From a virus (lineage: Duplodnaviria; Heunggongvirae; Uroviricota; Caudoviricetes), in IMG/VR virus record IMGVR_UViG_2690316318_000017, positions 1-33,826 of that record: a stretch of 33,826 bases of DNA; one strand, given 5' to 3'. The notes below the pieces were generated by a model that saw only the letters and a program-made list of their open reading frames with translations, ran no database searches and had not been told where the DNA came from. Made by a program: the position numbers and the translations under genes. Each line of letters starts with the position of its first letter. Positions within the stretch are counted from its first letter, which is position 1. Positions 15,123-32,999 of the stretch are shown here, in pieces.

Positions 15123-16285
15123 GATGCCTCCGGGGTGTCCTGCATAACCCAGTCTGTCAGCACGTCATCCTCAACCGTCACCACCGACCAGCGGTCGCCC
15201 GACTGTAACGCATACCGCCACGCGTTACCGTCCTGCGTGACATGCTCCGCCCGTTCGATGGTCTGCTGCATCAGCACATAGTCGGCGGCGGTCGGGGGCG
15301 TGTCTGTTGCACTGAGGCGCTTCATAACGTCAGCCGTAAGGTTTACCGTCTGCCGTGCAGCACCCGTGGCGGCGACCTGTTCCGCTGAACGGATGGCCAG
15401 CGGATATCGCTGGCGCGCATCCAGTTCGCTGACGTTCGCCAGCCCCCGTGCAAAATCCGGCCCGGTCAGGGTGCCGGTAACATACTGGCGGGCACTGCGG
15501 TAATCGTATTTTTCCGGTTCCGGCTGCCATGCCACCCGACCGGGATTAAATCCGAAGCCCGGGTCGGCGGTATACACGGAACCGTCCGGCATCTTCAGCC
15601 CCATTGTTCTGATGGTCTGGCCCGGCTGGCCATATTCCTGTTCAACCTCAACCAGTCGCCCCTCGCTGCTCTGCACCGTCAGGCCATATTTCTCCACATC
15701 AGACGCCGAACGCGCCCGGATACGGCAGCGGCATCCGTACCCGTCAGGCGCGTAGAAATACTCCCAGACCGGGTCATCCGCCCGGGCGGTAAAACCGTTC
15801 AGGGCGGCGTGTTTCGGGCGGGTGTGAAGGTCCATCACCGCCACGCGCTCAAAATAAGGCCGGTCAGCCACGTTCGCTATCTGCTGCTGATAACGTCCGG
15901 CGTTGTATGACGACTGAATATTGGTATCAAATATCGTGCGCAACCGGCGCGGCGTCAGCTGTCTGCCGTGCAGTTCGCCGGTGTCCTCGTCCACAATCAG
16001 TTTTTTACCCAGCCAGCCTTTTGATTCCAGCAGTGGTTCCAGTTGTGCAGCAAACTCCCGGAACGTCCCGCCGTCAGCCAGTGCCGCCGTCAGGCCATCA
16101 CGGATATCCTTCAGCACATCCAGTTTCAGCACACCCGCCACCGTGAACGCCCGGGCGTTTGCAATATCCTTCACATCGTGCCAGCGGAAGCCGATAACGT
16201 ATCCCTTGCTTTCGAAATACTTAATCGCTTCTTCCGGCTTCAGGGTGTACGCATATCCCAGGTCAACATCGTCAGCTGTCGGCAT
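15119..16285 (-). CDS. Head morphogenesis protein, Mu F-like
   Basis: 388 aa ORF immediately downstream of the portal gene. Confidence 0.6.
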   Translation of the reverse strand: MPTADDVDLGYAYTLKPEEAIKYFESKGYVIGFRWHDVKDIANARAFTVAGVLKLDVLKDIRDGLTAALADGGTFREFAAQLEPLLESKGWLGKKLIVDEDTGELHGRQLTPRRLRTIFDTNIQSSYNAGRYQQQIANVADRPYFERVAVMDLHTRPKHAALNGFTARADDPVWEYFYAPDGYGCRCRIRARSASDVEKYGLTVQSSEGRLVEVEQEYGQPGQTIRTMGLKMPDGSVYTADPGFGFNPGRVAWQPEPEKYDYRSARQYVTGTLTGPDFARGLANVSELDARQRYPLAIRSAEQVAATGAARQTVNLTADVMKRLSATDTPPTAADYVLMQQTIERAEHVTQDGNAWRYALQSGDRWSVVTVEDDVLTDWVMQDTPEAS

Positions 16286-17867
16286 TCAGTCGCCCCCAGA
16301 TATCCGCCACAAAGAATGCCTGCGTCAGCAACTGCCGCAGCGTGTCATCCGGCAGTTCCGGCCACGCTTCCGCCAGTACATTCATGGCCTCGTCTGCATC
16401 CCGGCCTTCCTGTATGGCCTGCACCAGTGGGGCCACCAGTTCGTTCATCCCCTGCGCGATGGCCTCTGCCGGAAGCTCTGCCCGGTCGATGGCGCGCTGT
16501 GCCGGGTCGTCCTCCCCGTTGTCCTGCTGACTGAGCGCGGCAACATTCAGCCGCTCACGCAGCTGGCTGAGGCCCGCCTGCACAGGGAGATGCTGTGCCA
16601 CCGGCACCAGTACCTCTTCGCCGTCTTTCGGGGTGGGGATACCGGTTTTTTTGCGTACCCACGACACAGGGATATCCTTCATCCCCACATTGTTGACCAG
16701 CACGTTGACGGCTTCTGCCACGCCCTTAATGTCGGCTTCCTGCTGCACATCAAACACCAGACGCGGCAGACGGCGTGGCGGGATATCCTGCCAGCCGTTC
16801 AGGCTGGCCATCATCTGTATCAGGCTGCTGAACATGCCGGACAGCTGGCGAGCATCGGCGGCCAGAATGTCGCGCCGGACCTCGTTATGCACATTACCCA
16901 GCGCGTTGGTGGAGGTTTTACCGTCAGCCTGGCTGGTCAGCGTACTGCCCAGAATCACTTTTGAGGTGGTACGCTCCGCCCATTCCACCATCGACATGAA
17001 CGCCTCCGGCCCGCCGGACGCGGCTTCCTTGAACTCGATTTCGTTACCCTGCGGCAGGGCTGCCACCGCTTCATGGCCCAGATTGACCAGGGCTTCAAGA
17101 ATGTTGTCCCGGTCCTCGTCACTGGTGCCCTGTGCATAGTACGCAATGCGCGCCGGAAGGCCGTAAATCTCCAGAAATTCTGCCATATCACGCAGCGCAA
17201 AGTTTTTGAACAGATACGGCCAGACCAGTACACGAAACAGACCAGACGAACCCAGGAACCCCGACCGGGCGTTGTAACGGTGAACCAGCCAGCCGAACGG
17301 CCACAGCGCGGAACCGTCTTTACCATCTTCCCCACGATTGCCGTCATCCAGCCGGAGTTCGTCATTGTGTTCCGGCAGGGTAATAAACCAGTTATGCGGT
17401 CGCAGCGTCACCGCATCCGGTAACCACGTTTTATCCACGAACGCCCAGCTGATTTCCTGACAGCTGAAGCCGTAACCGACACTGGTCATCCCGTTGAGGA
17501 TGATGTCCTCCATGTCCGGGATACCGTGCAGCCATTCATCCACGGCGGCGGCCAGCTCCTTTTCTGCCTTCGAGGCATTGCGGGGTGGCTCCACCGACCA
17601 GTCCAGCGTCAGCAACGCTTTTTTGCGCTTTTCCATCTCGGCGAACAGATGACCATCACGTTCTTCCATATCCGCAAACAGCATCGCCTGCGCCGGAAGA
17701 TAACCGCGCTCGGCAGCTTCCAGAATGCGCGGCAGTTTTCTGATGTTCAGACCACGGGACGGGTGGTCGGGATAAATGCGCAGCCGTTCCGCCACTCTGA
17801 CCGACTGCGTGGTTTTGAGTGCCTCACGTTTCAGCGGGCGTCCGTAAATATCAACAAGCTGTGCCAT
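16272..17867 (-). CDS. Portal protein (Mu gp29/H-like)
   Basis: 531 aa ORF directly downstream of the terminase large subunit. Confidence 0.75.
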   Translation of the reverse strand: MAQLVDIYGRPLKREALKTTQSVRVAERLRIYPDHPSRGLNIRKLPRILEAAERGYLPAQAMLFADMEERDGHLFAEMEKRKKALLTLDWSVEPPRNASKAEKELAAAVDEWLHGIPDMEDIILNGMTSVGYGFSCQEISWAFVDKTWLPDAVTLRPHNWFITLPEHNDELRLDDGNRGEDGKDGSALWPFGWLVHRYNARSGFLGSSGLFRVLVWPYLFKNFALRDMAEFLEIYGLPARIAYYAQGTSDEDRDNILEALVNLGHEAVAALPQGNEIEFKEAASGGPEAFMSMVEWAERTTSKVILGSTLTSQADGKTSTNALGNVHNEVRRDILAADARQLSGMFSSLIQMMASLNGWQDIPPRRLPRLVFDVQQEADIKGVAEAVNVLVNNVGMKDIPVSWVRKKTGIPTPKDGEEVLVPVAQHLPVQAGLSQLRERLNVAALSQQDNGEDDPAQRAIDRAELPAEAIAQGMNELVAPLVQAIQEGRDADEAMNVLAEAWPELPDDTLRQLLTQAFFVADIWGRLNADS

Positions 17868-22276: not shown

Positions 22277-22744
22277 TTAATCAAAAAGCCCCACCAGGGT
22301 GGGGCTTTTCAGCGAAGTCTGTTTTTGTCGTCGGTGTATCAGCTGCCATGCATACCGGTCTGAAATGCCGTAACGGGGACAGAGCAGTGCCAGCGCCTGC
22401 CGGTGTGAGCATCCGTCTTTTACATGCTGCTGTAAATCAGCCATAAAACGGGTGTTACGCAGGGCACGTAACGCATGATCGCAACGGGGAATGTAAAACG
22501 GAGCACCGCCAAGAAAGCGGATCAGTTTGTTGATTTCGTCTTCGGTCAGCACATCATGTAACAGGGCATGGACACCGCCGGTTCGTTCGGCGTGTGCGCC
22601 GGTTTTACCGCTTAACGTCACGCCACCAAAAGAACGGATTAACCGGGTCAGAGCGGGGAAGCCAATCACGCTAATCAGTTGCTGCACGGAATCAGGCAAC
22701 AGTGCCTGCGCATCGCGAAGATCTGTTTCACTGAAGGTCTGCAT
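22277..22744 (-). CDS. Mor/C-family transcriptional activator of middle/late genes
   Basis: 155 aa; C-terminal pattern LGGAPFYIPRCDHALRALRNTRFMADL...RYGISDRYAWQLIHRRQ matches the Mor/C signature (G..YIP plus HTH). Confidence 0.7.
   Translation of the reverse strand: MQTFSETDLRDAQALLPDSVQQLISVIGFPALTRLIRSFGGVTLSGKTGAHAERTGGVHALLHDVLTEDEINKLIRFLGGAPFYIPRCDHALRALRNTRFMADLQQHVKDGCSHRQALALLCPRYGISDRYAWQLIHRRQKQTSLKSPTLVGLFD
22280..22312 (-). terminator. Rho-independent terminator after the Mor/C-like gene
   Basis: Minus-strand hairpin AAAAGCCCCACC-CUGG-UGGGGCUUUUU followed by a U-run; overlaps the last codons of the upstream gene. Confidence 0.6.
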
Positions 22745-24344: not shown

Positions 24345-24863
24345 TTACGCACCTCCTATCCCCTGAAGCATGACCGCGCGGCAGGCTTCATCAACCATAG
24401 CTTCTACGTTTTCGAGAAGTACGTAGCTGTACTGCTGCCCACTAACCCATTCTTTTCTGCGAGGTAATGCGCGTGGGTCCGCTACAATGGCTCGCAAACG
24501 TTCCAGAGCAGCTGGTACTGCTGACACTGGAGGGGCAGCATAAAGCTCATGCCTTCCATCAGGCAGCGAGTGACCCACATACTCACCGACCCCGTCAATA
24601 CACATTTCCCCATCTTCAACAATGCATGATGCTACTGGCAAAGCCACCTCCCGTGCCTCCAGTTCTTCTGCCCACTTCCGAAGCACTTCAATCTCACCAT
24701 TACGAGTTATCAGGTCACGACACATTCTTTCGTTTTCATCCAACAGCGCCTGCACAACCTCCGGCGTAGCCGCAGCACGAAAAGCCTGTAGGCTCTGCCA
24801 CGTCGTATCCCCCTTCGCGGCCTCTGCCACCTCACGCAGTGCCTGATAATTAATCTCGCTCAC
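24345..24863 (-). CDS. Hypothetical early protein (possibly Ead/Ea22-like)
   Basis: 172 aa; N-terminus MSEINYQALREVAEAAKGDTTW resembles prophage Ead/Ea22-type N-termini. Confidence 0.3.
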   Translation of the reverse strand: MSEINYQALREVAEAAKGDTTWQSLQAFRAAATPEVVQALLDENERMCRDLITRNGEIEVLRKWAEELEAREVALPVASCIVEDGEMCIDGVGEYVGHSLPDGRHELYAAPPVSAVPAALERLRAIVADPRALPRRKEWVSGQQYSYVLLENVEAMVDEACRAVMLQGIGGA

Positions 24864-26996: not shown

Positions 26997-27188
26997 TTAA
27001 TGCGGTGCTTTCAGTGTTTCGACTTTAACGAAATAAGGCTCGACATTAATTTCAACCACACAACCACATTTAAAATCTCTGGCAGGTGCAACAGTTTTTA
27101 CCACCCGACCACCACGCACTGCCCGATGTGCAATGTGCATGAAGCGAGTCCCTGGCGGATATAGCTGATTAAAGCGTTTCGCGTTCAT
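26997..27188 (-). CDS. Hypothetical small protein
   Basis: 63 aa ORF; start overlaps the upstream gene stop. Confidence 0.25.
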   Translation of the reverse strand: MNAKRFNQLYPPGTRFMHIAHRAVRGGRVVKTVAPARDFKCGCVVEINVEPYFVKVETLKAPH

Positions 27189-27492
27189 GAGGCGGCTTCC
27201 ATCCTTTCAGGTGAGCATTGGCACAGAACTCTGCCCGGTGTTCCGCCCAGATGCGGCGCAGGGTACTACACGGGCTTTGTGCTGCCTTACGCCACAGTTT
27301 TTCAGCTTCGGCATAATCGCCGCGTTGTTCTGCTCTGGACGCGCCCAGCGAATACGCTGCGCAACGGTTCCCGGCCCTGTACTCTTTGATATCCTGATGC
27401 ATGTTAAACCCCTGCAATATCAAGCGGGATTGCGCGGTATTCAGCAGAATCACCGACGCGCTCATACACGCGGATATAGCTTTTGCTGCCAA
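27169..27492 (-). CDS. Small helical protein, possibly ANR-family regulator-like
   Basis: Motif AEQRGDYAEAEKLWRKAA...RRIWAEHRAEFC resembles ANR-type small regulators; true start probably the internal MHQDIKEY ATG near 27402. Confidence 0.3.
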   Translation of the reverse strand: MAAKAISACMSASVILLNTAQSRLILQGFNMHQDIKEYRAGNRCAAYSLGASRAEQRGDYAEAEKLWRKAAQSPCSTLRRIWAEHRAEFCANAHLKGWKPPHERETL

Positions 27493-28048
27493 TTACCTGG
27501 ACGGCTTCACCAATCAGCGACATGGCGTTATTCCAGCGTTCGTCCTCAATCTCGAGGCGACGCAGGGCCAGAACGCGACCGGTGTTGATGTTGCCTTCCT
27601 TGTCCGTGCTGAATGCCTCACTGATGATGGCCTTAATTTCAGGACGTGCACCTTCCGTCCAGTCAGCCAGGCAATCATCAATCAGCGACTTCGCGGTCTG
27701 AATGCGTTCATCAAACGCGATACGGTCCTGCATGGCGCGCTGAATCTTGTAACGCCCGTCAAAGCTGTAAAGCGTGATATTCCCTTTTTTGCCGCCTTTC
27801 ACAGCGCCGTATTTCTCCGCCGACAGGTCAATAAATGCCTGGATATCACCAAACGCACGCAGTTTCAGTTCCCGCAGTGAGGCGGAGGCAGCAATCACCA
27901 TCTCCACAAGCTCACCGACCAGCTGCTCGCGGTCGCGGTCAATATCTTTGATAAGGCTTTCAGGTGTCATTACGCCACGGGCATCCACCCAGTAACCTTC
28001 AGGCGCTTGAGTTTTCGTGTATTGCTTAACTTTATTTTCAGTCGTCAT
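27404..28048 (-). CDS. Hypothetical early protein (possibly DUF3164-like)
   Basis: 214 aa charged ORF in the position where Mu carries semi-essential early genes; does not resemble Mu Gam as I recall it. Confidence 0.3.
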   Translation of the reverse strand: MTTENKVKQYTKTQAPEGYWVDARGVMTPESLIKDIDRDREQLVGELVEMVIAASASLRELKLRAFGDIQAFIDLSAEKYGAVKGGKKGNITLYSFDGRYKIQRAMQDRIAFDERIQTAKSLIDDCLADWTEGARPEIKAIISEAFSTDKEGNINTGRVLALRRLEIEDERWNNAMSLIGEAVQVIGSKSYIRVYERVGDSAEYRAIPLDIAGV

Positions 28049-28077: not shown

Positions 28078-28314
28078 TTAATGTGTGTTATGCGCGCAGG
28101 GGTCCACGCCAACAGAAAATAAATCAACGCCGTTAAATTCTTTATTAAGCGTTTGATTCATTACCTCCCATAACCGTTGTCTTACTCCGACCTCTTTATC
28201 CGTAAATCCTTTTTTATCAATAGCCCCCATACTCCTGACACGAAGCGTGCCGTTTTCATCGGTATAGATGATTACCTCTAACTTAACCGCCATGTTTTCC
28301 ACCTTTGAAATCAA
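28078..28314 (-). CDS. Small protein, member of three-gene paralogous array
   Basis: Internal start MAVKLEVIIYTDENG shares the N-terminal pattern with the next two ORFs. Confidence 0.35.
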   Translation of the reverse strand: MISKVENMAVKLEVIIYTDENGTLRVRSMGAIDKKGFTDKEVGVRQRLWEVMNQTLNKEFNGVDLFSVGVDPCAHNTH

Positions 28315-28474
28315 ACGATTTAAAAATAATTTCGTTCATAAAACAGTGAGTTTTTATGATAATGTCGGAAACCTGCTCTCCCGTGACATCAGGCGGCAAC
28401 TGATACGTCGCGACAGCTTTCTCCGGTTTACCAGGCCTGTCCAGGCTGAAGGTTAACTCAAGCTCTAATGACAT
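28283..28474 (-). CDS. Small protein, member of three-gene paralogous array
   Basis: N-terminus MSLELELTFSLD; tandem with the two related ORFs. Confidence 0.35.
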   Translation of the reverse strand: MSLELELTFSLDRPGKPEKAVATYQLPPDVTGEQVSDIIIKTHCFMNEIIFKSFDFKGGKHGG

Positions 28475-28484
28475 TTTTCACCTC

Positions 28485-28736
28485 TCAATGCATTTGTGTC
28501 TCTTGAGGAATATACGGACATCCCTGTGCCAGTTGTTTCACGTAATCATGGTAGATTTGCAGATCAAGCCGTTCATTTCCGTGTTTCTCCTTCAGAATCG
28601 TACAAATAGCGCCAACAGTCCCCAGAGTTCTTGCCGCTTCTTCGAGTGTGGCATTGTCGCCATTTTCCACCCGAATAAGGTTATGGCACTGGTTATTACC
28701 CAGGTCGGTAAATACTATTGTTAATTTCACGCTCAC
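28485..28736 (-). CDS. Small protein, member of three-gene paralogous array
   Basis: N-terminus MSVKLTIVFTDLG; tandem with the two related ORFs. Confidence 0.35.
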   Translation of the reverse strand: MSVKLTIVFTDLGNNQCHNLIRVENGDNATLEEAARTLGTVGAICTILKEKHGNERLDLQIYHDYVKQLAQGCPYIPQETQMH

Positions 28737-28751
28737 TTTTAATTCCTCGTT

Positions 28752-28991
28752 TTATTGCCATACGACGGTGCAGCCGTCGATACAGGACGTTTTAACCACA
28801 CGACGCAGGCCGCTGAATGTCTGGATGATTTCCGTTATCGGCCATACAGGACCGCCCACGGGCGGGCAGGCATAAACCACAGGTAAACGGTGATGTTGCC
28901 CAGTTACGCGACCGCCGGTGGTGTGGATGGCTACACGGGCACGGGAACGGACGGCGTTAATGGTCTGCTTGTCCATCGTCTTGTTCTCCAT
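28752..28991 (-). CDS. Hypothetical small protein immediately downstream of B (kil-like position)
   Basis: 79 aa ORF whose start overlaps the B stop codon. Confidence 0.3.
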   Translation of the reverse strand: MENKTMDKQTINAVRSRARVAIHTTGGRVTGQHHRLPVVYACPPVGGPVWPITEIIQTFSGLRRVVKTSCIDGCTVVWQ

Positions 28992-29884
28992 CAGTGAATT
29001 AACATTTCTGAATATTTATCAATGACCTGCACACTGACCGGTGCATCGCTGATATCACAAATCCGGTACACACCGCGCGCCAGCTTGAACAGACGACGGG
29101 CATTGCCCAGCGAACGTGTGTAAAGTGCCTCACCAATTTCCGGGTCTGCCGCTTCCGGCATCATGTCTGTGGCAATCTTGTTAAAATCTTCCTGCGTCAG
29201 CGTATCGCCCAGGTTAAGCGCCAGCGCCACGCGGCTGTATAATTGAGCGAACTCACCACAACGGCCCTTAAGGTTAATCAGAAGGTGAGGCATACCCGCC
29301 AGGACAATCCCGATACCCGCTTTGTCATGCAGACGGCGCAATACCTCCAGTGCACGATAGGGAAGCAGTTCAGCCTCATCCACCATCAGCAGACGACCTG
29401 ACCCACGCAGTTCACGCACACAGGCATCAATCTTCTCGCGAATATCGCCGTGAACCTTTATACCCAGCTGACGGCACAGTTCATCGAGTAACTTTCTGGC
29501 CGTATAGCCAATATCGGCTTCAATGAGCACTACATCCCGGTTTCTGGCAGCATACTCACTCAGAATCATGCTTTTACCCAGACCCGCCGCGCCATACAGC
29601 ACGCAAATATCACACTCCAGATGGGCGTAGGTCAGCACCTCCAGCCCTTTGGCGGCCATGCCGGTGGTGACAAATCGCACTTTAATACGGCGGTTGTTTT
29701 CCTTTTCCCATTCACGGGTCACAAAGGCAGAAATGCGTTCTTCAATATCAGCCATATCGCCCTGATATTTACCCTGCAAATACTGGTTAATAACGGCGCT
29801 GCTACGACCAATAGCACGGGCAACGTGGGTCTGCGTAAAGCCGCGACGGGCCATTACGTCATTTAATTGCGTAATTAAACTCAT
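28991..29884 (-). CDS. B: Transposition ATPase, MuB-like
   Basis: 297 aa; N-terminal HTH-like region then Walker A (GAAGLGKS) and Walker B-like (LLMVDEAE) motifs; directly downstream of the transposase. Confidence 0.8.
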   Translation of the reverse strand: MSLITQLNDVMARRGFTQTHVARAIGRSSAVINQYLQGKYQGDMADIEERISAFVTREWEKENNRRIKVRFVTTGMAAKGLEVLTYAHLECDICVLYGAAGLGKSMILSEYAARNRDVVLIEADIGYTARKLLDELCRQLGIKVHGDIREKIDACVRELRGSGRLLMVDEAELLPYRALEVLRRLHDKAGIGIVLAGMPHLLINLKGRCGEFAQLYSRVALALNLGDTLTQEDFNKIATDMMPEAADPEIGEALYTRSLGNARRLFKLARGVYRICDISDAPVSVQVIDKYSEMLIH

Positions 29885-29902: not shown

Positions 29903-31978
29903 TTAACGATTATTTGTGCCGTTTTTCTTTAAATTGCGCTCACGGTCAGACACGAATAAATAAAGTTCTTCTTTTTCCTTTTTCTCCTGGCGTTCCAGTC
30001 CATATCCCAGATTAAAGTCAGGCTTCTGCGTAATAGCCGGGGTAAGCTCGCGTTTAGCCTCTTCGATTTTCTGCGTGGCCCGTGCAATGCGGCCTCTGGC
30101 GCGTTTCTCCTGCTGCTGTTCGATAACAGCTTTCGGGAACGCATCAACCTTATTACCGTTCCAGATGGCATCGCAGATATAAGAGCCATCAGCCCGCCGG
30201 ACAATGACGCTGTTTGCATCATGAATATCGTAACTGACCCTGACTTCATTCCCGTGCTCTGCGGCCAGCTCATACGAGTAATAAATATTGTTGAATAACT
30301 GAATTTCCCCGCGAAATGTTTTGCGCGTCACTTCCGGCCTGAACATTTCATGCAGTTCTTCCTGCGACAGAAAATCAATTTCAACATTCTGCTCTTTTAT
30401 CAGTTTCCGGCGATACGCTGCCGGGCTGTAATATTCGCCATCCTCTTTGCGGGGAAGGCTGCTGTGTGGCCGGTTGTTATAGCGTCTGACCTCCAGCTCT
30501 ATGGCGGCCATCAGTTGCTCAAAGGTAGGGATTTCATCCCTCGCCTTAACCTGCCGTTTTGTCAGCTCTTTCCCTTTGTGGGTGGCCTTAATGGCTGACT
30601 GTGTGATGCGTTGCTGCATCATCACCGTTTCCTTGTCTGCATTTTTTGAGCAGTACGTCTGGAAACTCAGAGCCACATCTTTGGGTATTCCTTTGTTTGC
30701 TCGTTCTATTACCCCGCGCCCCTGCGGGTTACCAGGTATCCCCGTGTGATGCTCCACACCCAGCCGGGGCAGAATCCCGGTAATATCGGCATCAAGTACC
30801 TGGTTTTTTTCACCGCCCCCGTTATCGGAGTAATAAATCAGCGGTATTCCGTGCTGTGCCATGCCGTAACGTAATGCATCAGCAACGGCTATCACGTTTT
30901 CCGACAGGGACAGGGACCAGCCCACAACAAAGCGCTGCCCCGCATCCATAACCAGCGTCACTTCTGGCCGGAAAATATTGCCGGTCAGGGGGTTAAACGC
31001 GGTCATTTTCATACAATGACCATCCCCGACCCATACCGCATTAACCGGTAATGATGTCCACTCGCGCCGCACAAAGGGATTGAGCGAACGCCAGGCTGAA
31101 CCTGTGGAGCGGAAACGCTCCTTAACAATCACCGGGACGCTGCTTAACACCCGTCTTACTGCGTGAACTGAAGGCAGTGCCGCCAGCATTCCCGCATCGT
31201 TCGCGTGTTTTTCATGCCACCAGGCTGAAAACTCGCGATACGCATATTCAACGGTCGGTCGCTTCCATGAGCGATAGAACATAAAGAAATCGCTCAACCA
31301 CCAGACCTGCTCCCACGGTGTCCCCTTATGATGACCGGGAGCCAGTAACGCCAGTAACTGATTGGCATCACCGCGCGCCATCACCCAGCTGGAGTACCAG
31401 CTATCCAGGCTGCCGGTGCTGACACCGGTTCGCTTTCCCTGACGTGCATTTGCAGTATTAGCTGCTTCGATAATGCGGTCAGGTAACGCCCCCATGCGCA
31501 CACCATCAACGATGTGCTTTAACGCGGCCTTCCTGGTCATTCCGGCGTATTCACGCAGTTTATGCACTTCAGTAGCCAGCAATATCCGCGCATCAGCGAT
31601 GGCCTTTTGCTTGTCGGTCAGTGCCTGGACTTCGCGTAATGCCAGTTCAGGGCATTTGACCATCACTTCAAGTTCATCGCGAATGGTGACGTTCTTAACT
31701 GCCTTCTGCTCAACCACAACGGGCAGTTGCGTATCTTCCAGGACCTGATGGGTCAGGCGTTGACGTAAAACCTTCTGAACATCTTTAGGTAAACTGGATA
31801 TATGGTACTCATATATTTTCCCCTGAACTCCAGACTTCCTTCTTCTTGTCCAGTTCGCTCGTTTAGCTTTTTGAGTGATCCCCTGTACAGTTTTCGGTAG
31901 CCCTTGAAGCCCTGTTAGTTCATTCAACGTAAACCATTCAGGTTCGAACTTGACTTCATAGTCGTTGTTCTTATTCAT
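29903..31978 (-). CDS. A: DDE transposase, MuA-like
   Basis: 691 aa; N-terminal DNA-binding domain paralogous to the repressor N-terminus; central core with acidic residues (VWVGDGHCMKM... and IYYSDNGGGEKN) consistent with a DDE/RNase H-fold catalytic domain. Confidence 0.9.
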   Translation of the reverse strand: MNKNNDYEVKFEPEWFTLNELTGLQGLPKTVQGITQKAKRANWTRRRKSGVQGKIYEYHISSLPKDVQKVLRQRLTHQVLEDTQLPVVVEQKAVKNVTIRDELEVMVKCPELALREVQALTDKQKAIADARILLATEVHKLREYAGMTRKAALKHIVDGVRMGALPDRIIEAANTANARQGKRTGVSTGSLDSWYSSWVMARGDANQLLALLAPGHHKGTPWEQVWWLSDFFMFYRSWKRPTVEYAYREFSAWWHEKHANDAGMLAALPSVHAVRRVLSSVPVIVKERFRSTGSAWRSLNPFVRREWTSLPVNAVWVGDGHCMKMTAFNPLTGNIFRPEVTLVMDAGQRFVVGWSLSLSENVIAVADALRYGMAQHGIPLIYYSDNGGGEKNQVLDADITGILPRLGVEHHTGIPGNPQGRGVIERANKGIPKDVALSFQTYCSKNADKETVMMQQRITQSAIKATHKGKELTKRQVKARDEIPTFEQLMAAIELEVRRYNNRPHSSLPRKEDGEYYSPAAYRRKLIKEQNVEIDFLSQEELHEMFRPEVTRKTFRGEIQLFNNIYYSYELAAEHGNEVRVSYDIHDANSVIVRRADGSYICDAIWNGNKVDAFPKAVIEQQQEKRARGRIARATQKIEEAKRELTPAITQKPDFNLGYGLERQEKKEKEELYLFVSDRERNLKKNGTNNR

Positions 31979-32174
31979 AACGTGATGGCCAAATTTCTTC
32001 TGGCTTTTTACCGATCACACTAGCGACAATCATTTCTGCTTTGGGCCATTTTGTACGTAGAACATTACCCAAACTTCTTGATTTCATTCCATGCTCTCGT
32101 GAAAGCCGACTAAAGTTTGTTCCTTTCTTTTCTAGTTCCGCCTTGATATCTGACGGATGCATATCTTGTCTCAC
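31971..32174 (-). CDS. ner: Ner-like DNA-binding early regulator
   Basis: Conserved Ner/Nlp pattern KKGTNFSRLSREHG...WPKAEMIVASVIGKKPEEIWPSRY; listed start is GTG, ATG 4 codons in is likely; overlaps the transposase start. Confidence 0.8.
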   Translation of the reverse strand: MRQDMHPSDIKAELEKKGTNFSRLSREHGMKSRSLGNVLRTKWPKAEMIVASVIGKKPEEIWPSRYE

Positions 32175-32420: not shown

Positions 32421-32999
32421 ATGAAACAAGAATGGGTTGCCGCAAAAGACCTGGTAGGGCTTCATGGTTTACCTGCCACAATTCAGGGAATTCACCAAAA
32501 AGCCAAAAGGGGCGGATGGCGCAAAGAGAAAAGAATTACACCTGGTGTGAAGGGACATCAGGTATACTTCTACTTGCCTGATTTGCCTGAAAAAATACGC
32601 TGCTCCTTGGTGTCGAAAGACGGAGAAACTCCAGTGAGGAATGATTTAAACAAAGGGTTGATATCAATACTGGAAATGACATCCGCAGAAGATCAATTCA
32701 ATCTTTTTCGCGCTTTGTGTGAATTTGGCATCAAAGGAGTCCTAGAACACCTACAACAACCCACCAGGCAAGCTACGCAGGCCGACAGCGACCAGGACGA
32801 ACAGGAGAATGCCATCAGAAGCCTAAACATCAGGGAATCGCTTAAAGATGTTATATGTATGGCTCTAGATGGTAATGAAGAAACCGACAAAGAGATTTTG
32901 CGACGCATCGAATCTCGTGCACGGGCTGGGTCGCCAGGTGGTCAGACCGTTGCCACGCCGGAGCAAGAAACGAAGCCTGTAAACAAGAAATCAGCATAA
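32421..32999 (+). CDS. c: Mu-type repressor (c-like)
   Basis: 192 aa, only phage ORF on plus strand, divergent from ner-A-B; N-terminal 60 aa is paralogous to the transposase N-terminus (shared Mu operator/enhancer-binding domain); RBS AAGGGG. Confidence 0.6.
   Translation: MKQEWVAAKDLVGLHGLPATIQGIHQKAKRGGWRKEKRITPGVKGHQVYFYLPDLPEKIRCSLVSKDGETPVRNDLNKGLISILEMTSAEDQFNLFRALCEFGIKGVLEHLQQPTRQATQADSDQDEQENAIRSLNIRESLKDVICMALDGNEETDKEILRRIESRARAGSPGGQTVATPEQETKPVNKKSA

Follow-up and report, generated by a model that had tools for sequence, protein, structure and literature searches.

Do three consecutive open reading frames of 63 to 83 codons in the early region of a prophage belong to one gene family, and if so, how old is this family and what could it be for? 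The question is raised by positions 28,078–28,736 of a viral sequence of 33,826 nucleotides (hereafter the window, meaning the whole stretch of DNA that was analysed), where a first-pass annotation had proposed a tandem array of diverged paralogues engaged in an arms race with the host. Profile matches to Pfam and PHROGs identify all 33.8 kb of the window as a complete Mu-like transposable prophage, oriented along the minus strand. Its DNA is 96–98% identical to prophages of E. coli chromosomes, while megablast and blastn searches of 50,697 deposited phage records returned no match. The gene order is that of a Mu-like early region: next to a divergent c-type repressor (32,421–32,999, plus strand; HTH_Tnp_Mu_1), one strand (minus) carries a Ner-like gene (31,971–32,174; HTH_35), the MuA transposase (29,903–31,978; Mu-transpos_C, HTH_Tnp_Mu_1), a MuB-like AAA ATPase (28,991–29,884; AAA_22, phrog_296), and then kil and small early genes. 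The upstream neighbour of the trio (28,078–28,736, minus strand) is the Kil-like gene (28,752–28,991, minus strand; phrog_2679, E 2.3e-37), which is annotated in relatives and whose start by PGAP is the equivalent of 28,976. Its downstream neighbour encodes a DUF3164 protein (27,404–28,048, minus strand; PF11363, E 5e-81), which anchors the same slot at every one of 80 related loci. Mor (22,277–22,744; Pfam Mor) and a Mu-type portal (16,272–17,867; Portal_Mu) are found on the same strand. The trio thus does lie in a phage early region, as first proposed, namely in the early operon of this prophage.

The three small genes (A, B and C, in the direction of transcription) also stand as annotated, on the minus strand, with strong Shine-Dalgarno sequences throughout, and PGAP calls the same three genes (252, 192 and 216 nt) in E. 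coli prophages 96–98% identical to the window. Gene A (28,736 to 28,485; 83 aa, 252 nt) begins with GTG, encodes MSVKLTIVFTDL...ETQMH and is preceded by GAGGA (28,744–28,748), within the 15-nt spacer found 3' of the Kil-like gene. Gene B (28,474 to 28,283; 63 aa, 192 nt) begins with ATG, encodes MSLELELTFSLD...FDFKGGKHGG and has a Shine-Dalgarno sequence, GAGAGGTG (28,479–28,486), that overlaps the TGA stop of A (28,485–28,487). Gene C (28,293 to 28,078; 71 aa, 216 nt) begins at an internal ATG, encodes MAVKLEVIIYTDE...AHNTH and has its Shine-Dalgarno sequence, AAGGTGGA (28,298–28,305), inside B. The TTG at 28,314 was rejected as the start of the third frame, as it falls inside B and PGAP starts C at the internal ATG. 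The 11-nt overlap between B and C, ATGGCGGTTAA (28,283–28,293), contains both the start codon of C and the stop codon of B, an arrangement that we read from the sequence as translational coupling. Since the ribosome-binding site and start of C lie in the 3' end of B, the conserved disordered tail of B (KGGKHGG) is their coding image. Scans within the array found no promoter or terminator signals above chance and no Rfam family.

That A and B are expressed protein-coding genes follows from their close alleles, which differ mainly at synonymous sites. All three products are slightly acidic (net charge of −1 to −3), and no catalytic, membrane or DNA-binding signature was found in any of them. Profile searches of Pfam, NCBIfam and PDB sequences provided no family for A, B or C; one candidate for C, the Pfam family DUF7430 (14.3 bits, E 0.042), was discarded because it scores below the gathering threshold of 27 bits and is matched by only 1 of 27 family members. 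In PHROGs, A, B and C are full-length members of phrog_35084 (E 1.1e-60), phrog_38867 (5e-48) and phrog_7438 (8e-22), respectively. PHROGs treats these as distinct families, each without a known function, and does not contain the link among them that we discuss below.

Compared directly, the three proteins are hardly alike. BLASTP yields no alignment at E <= 100 for A–B and A–C, and E = 0.10 for B–C; shuffle tests on semi-global alignments of the whole proteins (z = 2.3, −1.6 and 1.9) reveal no similarity past the N-terminus; hhalign on shallow database-derived alignments of A, B and C gives 2% or less; and iterative HMM searches of a 5352-ORF six-frame database do not cross between the three. 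Moreover, tblastn of C against the 50,697 phage records, Mu included, returned nothing, and scans of metagenomes and viral contigs for further relatives of A and B recovered hardly anything but near-identical copies. Comparisons of single sequences end at the N-terminus, and on those alone, one half of what the first-pass annotation had named as speaking against paralogy (similarity limited to a few N-terminal residues, along with differing predicted folds) is what we observe.

The N-terminal pattern itself, by which the genes had been linked in the first place, is nevertheless above chance, though modestly so and, in single sequences, over the first ~12 residues only. Ungapped BLOSUM62 scores for residues 2–12 amount to 12 (A–C), 10 (A–B) and 15 (B–C), i.e., the top 0.46%, 0.80% and 0.21%, respectively, of random N-terminus pairs drawn from 1174 long ORFs. 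When 5066 ORF N-termini are compared with A and with C, small genes from the same slot of other prophages make up most of the top matches. Across 80 Mu-like prophage loci gathered via the DUF3164 gene, the pattern is matched by 16 of 97 slot ORFs (distinct ORFs of 50–95 aa, at most 700 nt upstream of DUF3164, in other Enterobacterales Mu-like prophages) vs. 1 of 2389 ORFs elsewhere on either strand, these counts coming from non-independent loci and from a pattern partly written after the data were seen. The shared motif is therefore specific to the slot family when set against proteins in general. In Photorhabdus, Xenorhabdus, Trabulsiella, Mixta, Pantoea, Phytobacter, Yersinia, Kosakonia, Morganella, Serratia, Lonsdalea and Erwinia, DUF3164 is directly preceded by one or two small genes (59–83 aa) with a common layout, in which M-[AS]-x-[KR]-[ILV]-x-[ILV]-x-[ILV] is followed by a turn at Gly, a stretch resembling a second strand, and a helix, and four loci (L014, L015, L017 and L024) each have two pattern-bearing genes in tandem.

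Profiles extend the similarity between A and C beyond the N-terminus. A phmmer search with A through 1.84 billion representatives identified only two true distant relatives, P0047 and P0048 (83 aa each; 40% and 39% identical to A), while four long repeat proteins were dismissed as false positives, their score being summed over 4–13 weak stretches each (in P0050, P0051 and P0052, the matches fall in internal repeat units, e.g., of the SVQFTD type in P0050). Iterative HMM searches, for their part, add members from Photorhabdus, Xenorhabdus, Morganella and Pantoea to the C family. When the A profile complemented with P0047 and P0048 is compared to this extended C profile, hhalign reports 74% (E 2.8e-5) for an alignment of 46 columns that takes in both hairpin and helix, and a family profile devoid of A sequences finds P0047 (E 2e-5) and P0048 (E 6e-4), with A of the window at E 0.19 only. 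Weak hhalign links also exist between subgroups of slot genes (C–H 88%, C–F 51%, D–F 48%, A–E 51%). In terms of sequence, the homology of A and C is thus reasonably supported. The profile of B reaches 3% or less against those of A or C in hhalign, and a family profile built without B gives it E > 600. Of the paralogy originally claimed for all three genes, the A–C part is recovered at the profile level, whereas pairwise alignments find nothing and B is left without a sequence link; B would belong to the family only by its predicted fold, its N-terminal pattern and its position.

The AF2 models of B (13-sequence alignment; pLDDT 74.9) and C (17-sequence alignment; pLDDT 67.8) have the same strand–strand–helix topology in sequences that do not align, with strands at 4–11 and 18–25 and a helix at 32–53 in B, and strands at 4–11 and 17–24 and a helix at 32–52 in C. 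Element boundaries hence agree within one residue, in models of only moderate confidence (pTM about 0.45) and as an agreement of element positions, not a superposition. For A, a crude Chou-Fasman profile can be reconciled with this layout plus an extra C-terminal element, and A, B and C all have, where the helix begins, a Thr (residue 30 or 31) with x-[EK]-[EQ] after it. A common fold, which the first-pass annotation had suggested looking for, is predicted for two of the proteins, as a hairpin–helix layout, the third being represented by a propensity profile. By eye, the N-terminal strand, Gly turn, second strand and T-x-E-E-capped helix also recall the beta-beta-(beta)-alpha-beta arrangement of HicB-like/UPF0150 domains; this candidate was ruled out, as no Pfam or PDB-sequence match was obtained for the trio.

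Altogether, we see about an even chance that A, B and C are very old and strongly diverged members of a single slot-specific family of small hairpin–helix proteins, bearing in mind that so simple a motif as a hairpin plus a helix could arise independently. At face value, one might rather take them for three unrelated ORFans lying side by side, whose N-terminal pattern and hairpin–helix layout are due to convergence or chance, all the more so as a short amphipathic first strand is a common opening of small alpha/beta proteins. This alternative is unlikely in our opinion, because the A–C profile match goes well beyond the N-terminus with its 46 columns, the profile built without A recovers relatives of A (E 2e-5), the N-terminal pattern is nearly exclusive to the slot across genera with non-aligning interiors, and the element boundaries of B and C coincide within one residue.

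The family reading has to be confronted with the variation observed among prophages. In 58 E. coli genomes carrying this prophage type, A+B+C occurs 18 times, B+C 3 times and C alone 36 times, while the last genome has only a partial match to C; the sequence of the C region is thus present in 58/58 prophages and the whole gene in 57/58. In C-only prophages, C comes directly after kil, and in B+C prophages, the spacer 3' of Kil that precedes A in the trio precedes B. As the same Kil spacer is found before A or B, cassette gains and losses extend precisely from one start codon to the next, and what makes the copy number vary is which distinct genes are present, not how many repeats there are. 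In one E. coli prophage (STEC346, L002, about 2180–2395), C has a 1-nt deletion (ATGGGGCTGTTGAT vs. ATGGGGGCTATTGAT) and is unannotated, B being intact; from its sequence, this C gene is probably a frameshifted pseudogene. Two other loci (L091, 1388–1720; L102, 887–1219) have an extra 110-aa gene between the MuB-like gene and kil, a further optional cassette.

Gene C comes in two or more allele types that share about 50% identity and in which the first ~12 and the last few codons are nearly invariant and the interior is replaced, with sharp boundaries. In locus L003, only the interior of C differs (63% DNA identity), A, B and the flanks being 95–99% identical. Such diversity may stem from whole-allele exchange by recombination within the conserved gene ends. 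Between close alleles, dN/dS is 0.07 or lower for A and 0.03–0.14 for B, and both genes are under purifying selection at this scale. Between the allele types of C, it is about 0.5 vs. 0.03–0.2 in the flanks, but dS is also 4–6 times that of the flanks, which indicates that the signal mostly reflects replacement by old alleles and not demonstrated positive selection. An independent lineage (L086) has the same ordered trio, with protein identities of 40% (A), 62% (B) and 48% (C), while the flanking proteins are 82% (MuB), 91% (Kil) and 96% (DUF3164) identical. Because the trio diverged while its flanks were conserved, it must predate the split of these lineages, and is old, co-inherited and much faster-evolving than its neighbours. 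Moreover, the families of A, B and C each span Escherichia, Salmonella and Citrobacter separately. Fast divergence and a varying gene number are as expected for accessory genes under diversifying pressure. The survey of relatives suggested in the first-pass annotation therefore bears out both a divergence faster than the flanks and a variable gene number, whereas the signal of positive selection is confounded by old alleles.

These distributions also bear on what the proteins are for. A serious rival holds that the trio proteins, though related, serve the early programme of the phage itself, as partners or modulators of the translationally coupled DUF3164 protein or of the transposition/replication machinery. 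Indeed, at most Enterobacterales loci a gene of the C type directly precedes DUF3164, often with a stop that overlaps the start of the latter (...N-V-H* over ATGTCC), all E. coli prophages of the type have C, and the first strand is invariant across genera. However, the interiors are hypervariable while DUF3164 is 95–99% identical, which is unexpected for the interface of an obligate partner, most prophages do without A and B, and the Mu-like prophages of Pseudomonas and betaproteobacteria have DUF3164 without any such upstream gene, so that we regard a purely phage-internal role as rather improbable. Finally, a recent tandem duplication followed by rapid divergence within this prophage lineage, as a literal reading of the first-pass annotation would have it, is very hard to maintain, since only gene adjacency and the common N-terminal pattern argue for it, whereas the supposed copies are devoid of detectable DNA or pairwise protein similarity, the ordered trio already exists in L086 (with A 40% identical and flanking proteins 82–96%) and the families of the three genes are distinct throughout Escherichia, Salmonella and Citrobacter. 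Judging from these sequences, any duplication behind the trio would be ancient.

On our reading, A, B and C are co-transcribed and translationally coupled in the early (Pe) operon, where the slot that separates the Kil-like gene from DUF3164 is variable in content. If they are indeed old members of one slot-specific family, C would be the ancestral, always-present member and B and A optional cassettes added upstream. Each protein would most likely be a small, slightly acidic beta-hairpin followed by one long helix, as modelled, and the hallmark of the family would be an amphipathic strand, M-[AS]-x-[KRE]-[ILVM]-x-[ILVM]-x-[ILVFM], a Gly turn and a T-x-[EK]-[EQ] helix cap. We infer that these are non-enzymatic binding proteins, made immediately upon induction or infection; the conserved first strand may build the fold or an oligomer interface, while the hypervariable second strand, loop and helix surface may determine which host (or phage) protein is bound.

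Regarding their function, no library family, fold or paper gives any indication, nor does any point to inhibitor activity or to differing targets, and the literature on DUF3164 and on the early genes of transposable phages contained nothing relevant to the trio. By analogy, the functional class that the trio would most resemble is that of the small host-directed early/accessory proteins of Mu-like phages. Briefly, Kil of Mu targets FtsZ and Gam of Mu targets RecBCD, while the targets of Tip of D3112 and Aqs1 of DMS3 are PilB and LasR; anti-CRISPRs of Pseudomonas Mu-like phages, unlike the trio, are encoded in the head-gene region. All of these proteins are, like the trio, small, non-enzymatic, encoded in phage operons, patchily distributed and fast-evolving, and no sequence or fold match was found between any of them and A, B or C. 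By analogy with Kil, Gam, Tip and Aqs1, the trio proteins might be stoichiometric binders of host proteins, and the arms-race inhibitor role advanced for them is a plausible hypothesis.

The closest analogue of the trio is the semi-essential early region of phage Mu between kil and gam, where the uncharacterised genes E5–E8 (gp6–gp9) directly follow Mu B and kil, at the equivalent point of the early operon. Mu differs in having gam downstream, not DUF3164. Within this region, E6/gp7 (AF083977, 4784–5047; L104) encodes a protein of 87 aa that starts with MAKVIIEIKNTVSG, ends in His and, as for the trio, is of unknown function. At the N-terminus it looks like the slot genes of the MAK[VI]IIE type from prophages of Serratia, Kosakonia and Yersinia, yet its match to the D-type subgroup profile (E 0.022 in a 5400-sequence space) is confined to the first 16 residues. 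A broader and more doubtful proposal, which we mention as a tentative one, is that the kil–DUF3164 slot, perhaps including Mu E6, holds an unrecognised superfamily of hairpin–helix binders of about 60–85 aa with an invariant first strand and a hypervariable surface for recognition, of which one to three would be stacked per phage and reshuffled as start-to-start cassettes, forming a combinatorial inhibitor array in which each member is directed against another defence or process of the host.

Other small genes were encountered at such loci. A Cys-rich, zinc-ribbon-like protein (C-P-x-C ... C-P-x-C-S-A-x-F) recurs at this location in prophages of Phytobacter and Kosakonia (L016, 3019–3294; L021, 3085–3312) and resembles by eye Mu E5/gp6 (L104, 4542–4772). 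In Mu-like prophages of Pseudomonas and Stutzerimonas, a gene for MAKIVITLED...TIH (L042, 4534–4746; also L045, L046, L038 and L050) sits about 1 kb downstream of the DUF3164 start, not upstream, and is weakly matched by the family profile (E 0.006–0.3).

As it stands, the trio is a fairly ordinary fast-evolving accessory cassette, in an ordinary region of this kind for a phage. Were the family reading true, three PHROG families of unknown function, several unclassified subgroups and possibly Mu E6 would be united into a slot-specific set of tiny proteins with a clear architecture of conserved and variable parts, which would open a way into the semi-essential early region of Mu-like phages, long left uncharacterised. 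The natural C-only, B+C and A+B+C variants would then constitute a small, defined panel with which to screen in E. coli for anti-defence or host-takeover activity.

Several proteins of the window end in His, i.e., A (...QMH), C (...NTH), MuB (...LIH) and the product of a 63-aa ORF at 26,997–27,188 (...APH), with the stop-proximal positions at 28,485–28,487, 28,078–28,080 and 28,991–28,993 for the first three, and the same is seen in loci L004–L083, in Kil-like proteins of other genera (...ESLH) and in Mu E6 (...TCH). Among ORFs of at most 120 aa, a terminal His is found in 13.5% of sense-strand ORFs with a Shine-Dalgarno sequence vs. 2.8% of antisense ORFs, an excess that is due in part only to the overlap of ...N-V-H* with the ATGTCC start of the next gene. 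Two genes downstream of the trio, the early operon includes an ANR-family gene (AraC negative regulator, Aar-like; 27,169–27,402, minus strand; NCBIfam NF033650, E 1.3e-15), also called ANR by PGAP in related prophages, and such a prophage-borne regulator could modulate AraC-type or H-NS regulons of the host. Further downstream, the same operon encodes an Ead/Ea22-like protein (24,345–24,863, minus strand; PF13935, E 1.1e-13), which is typically at home in lambdoid early regions.
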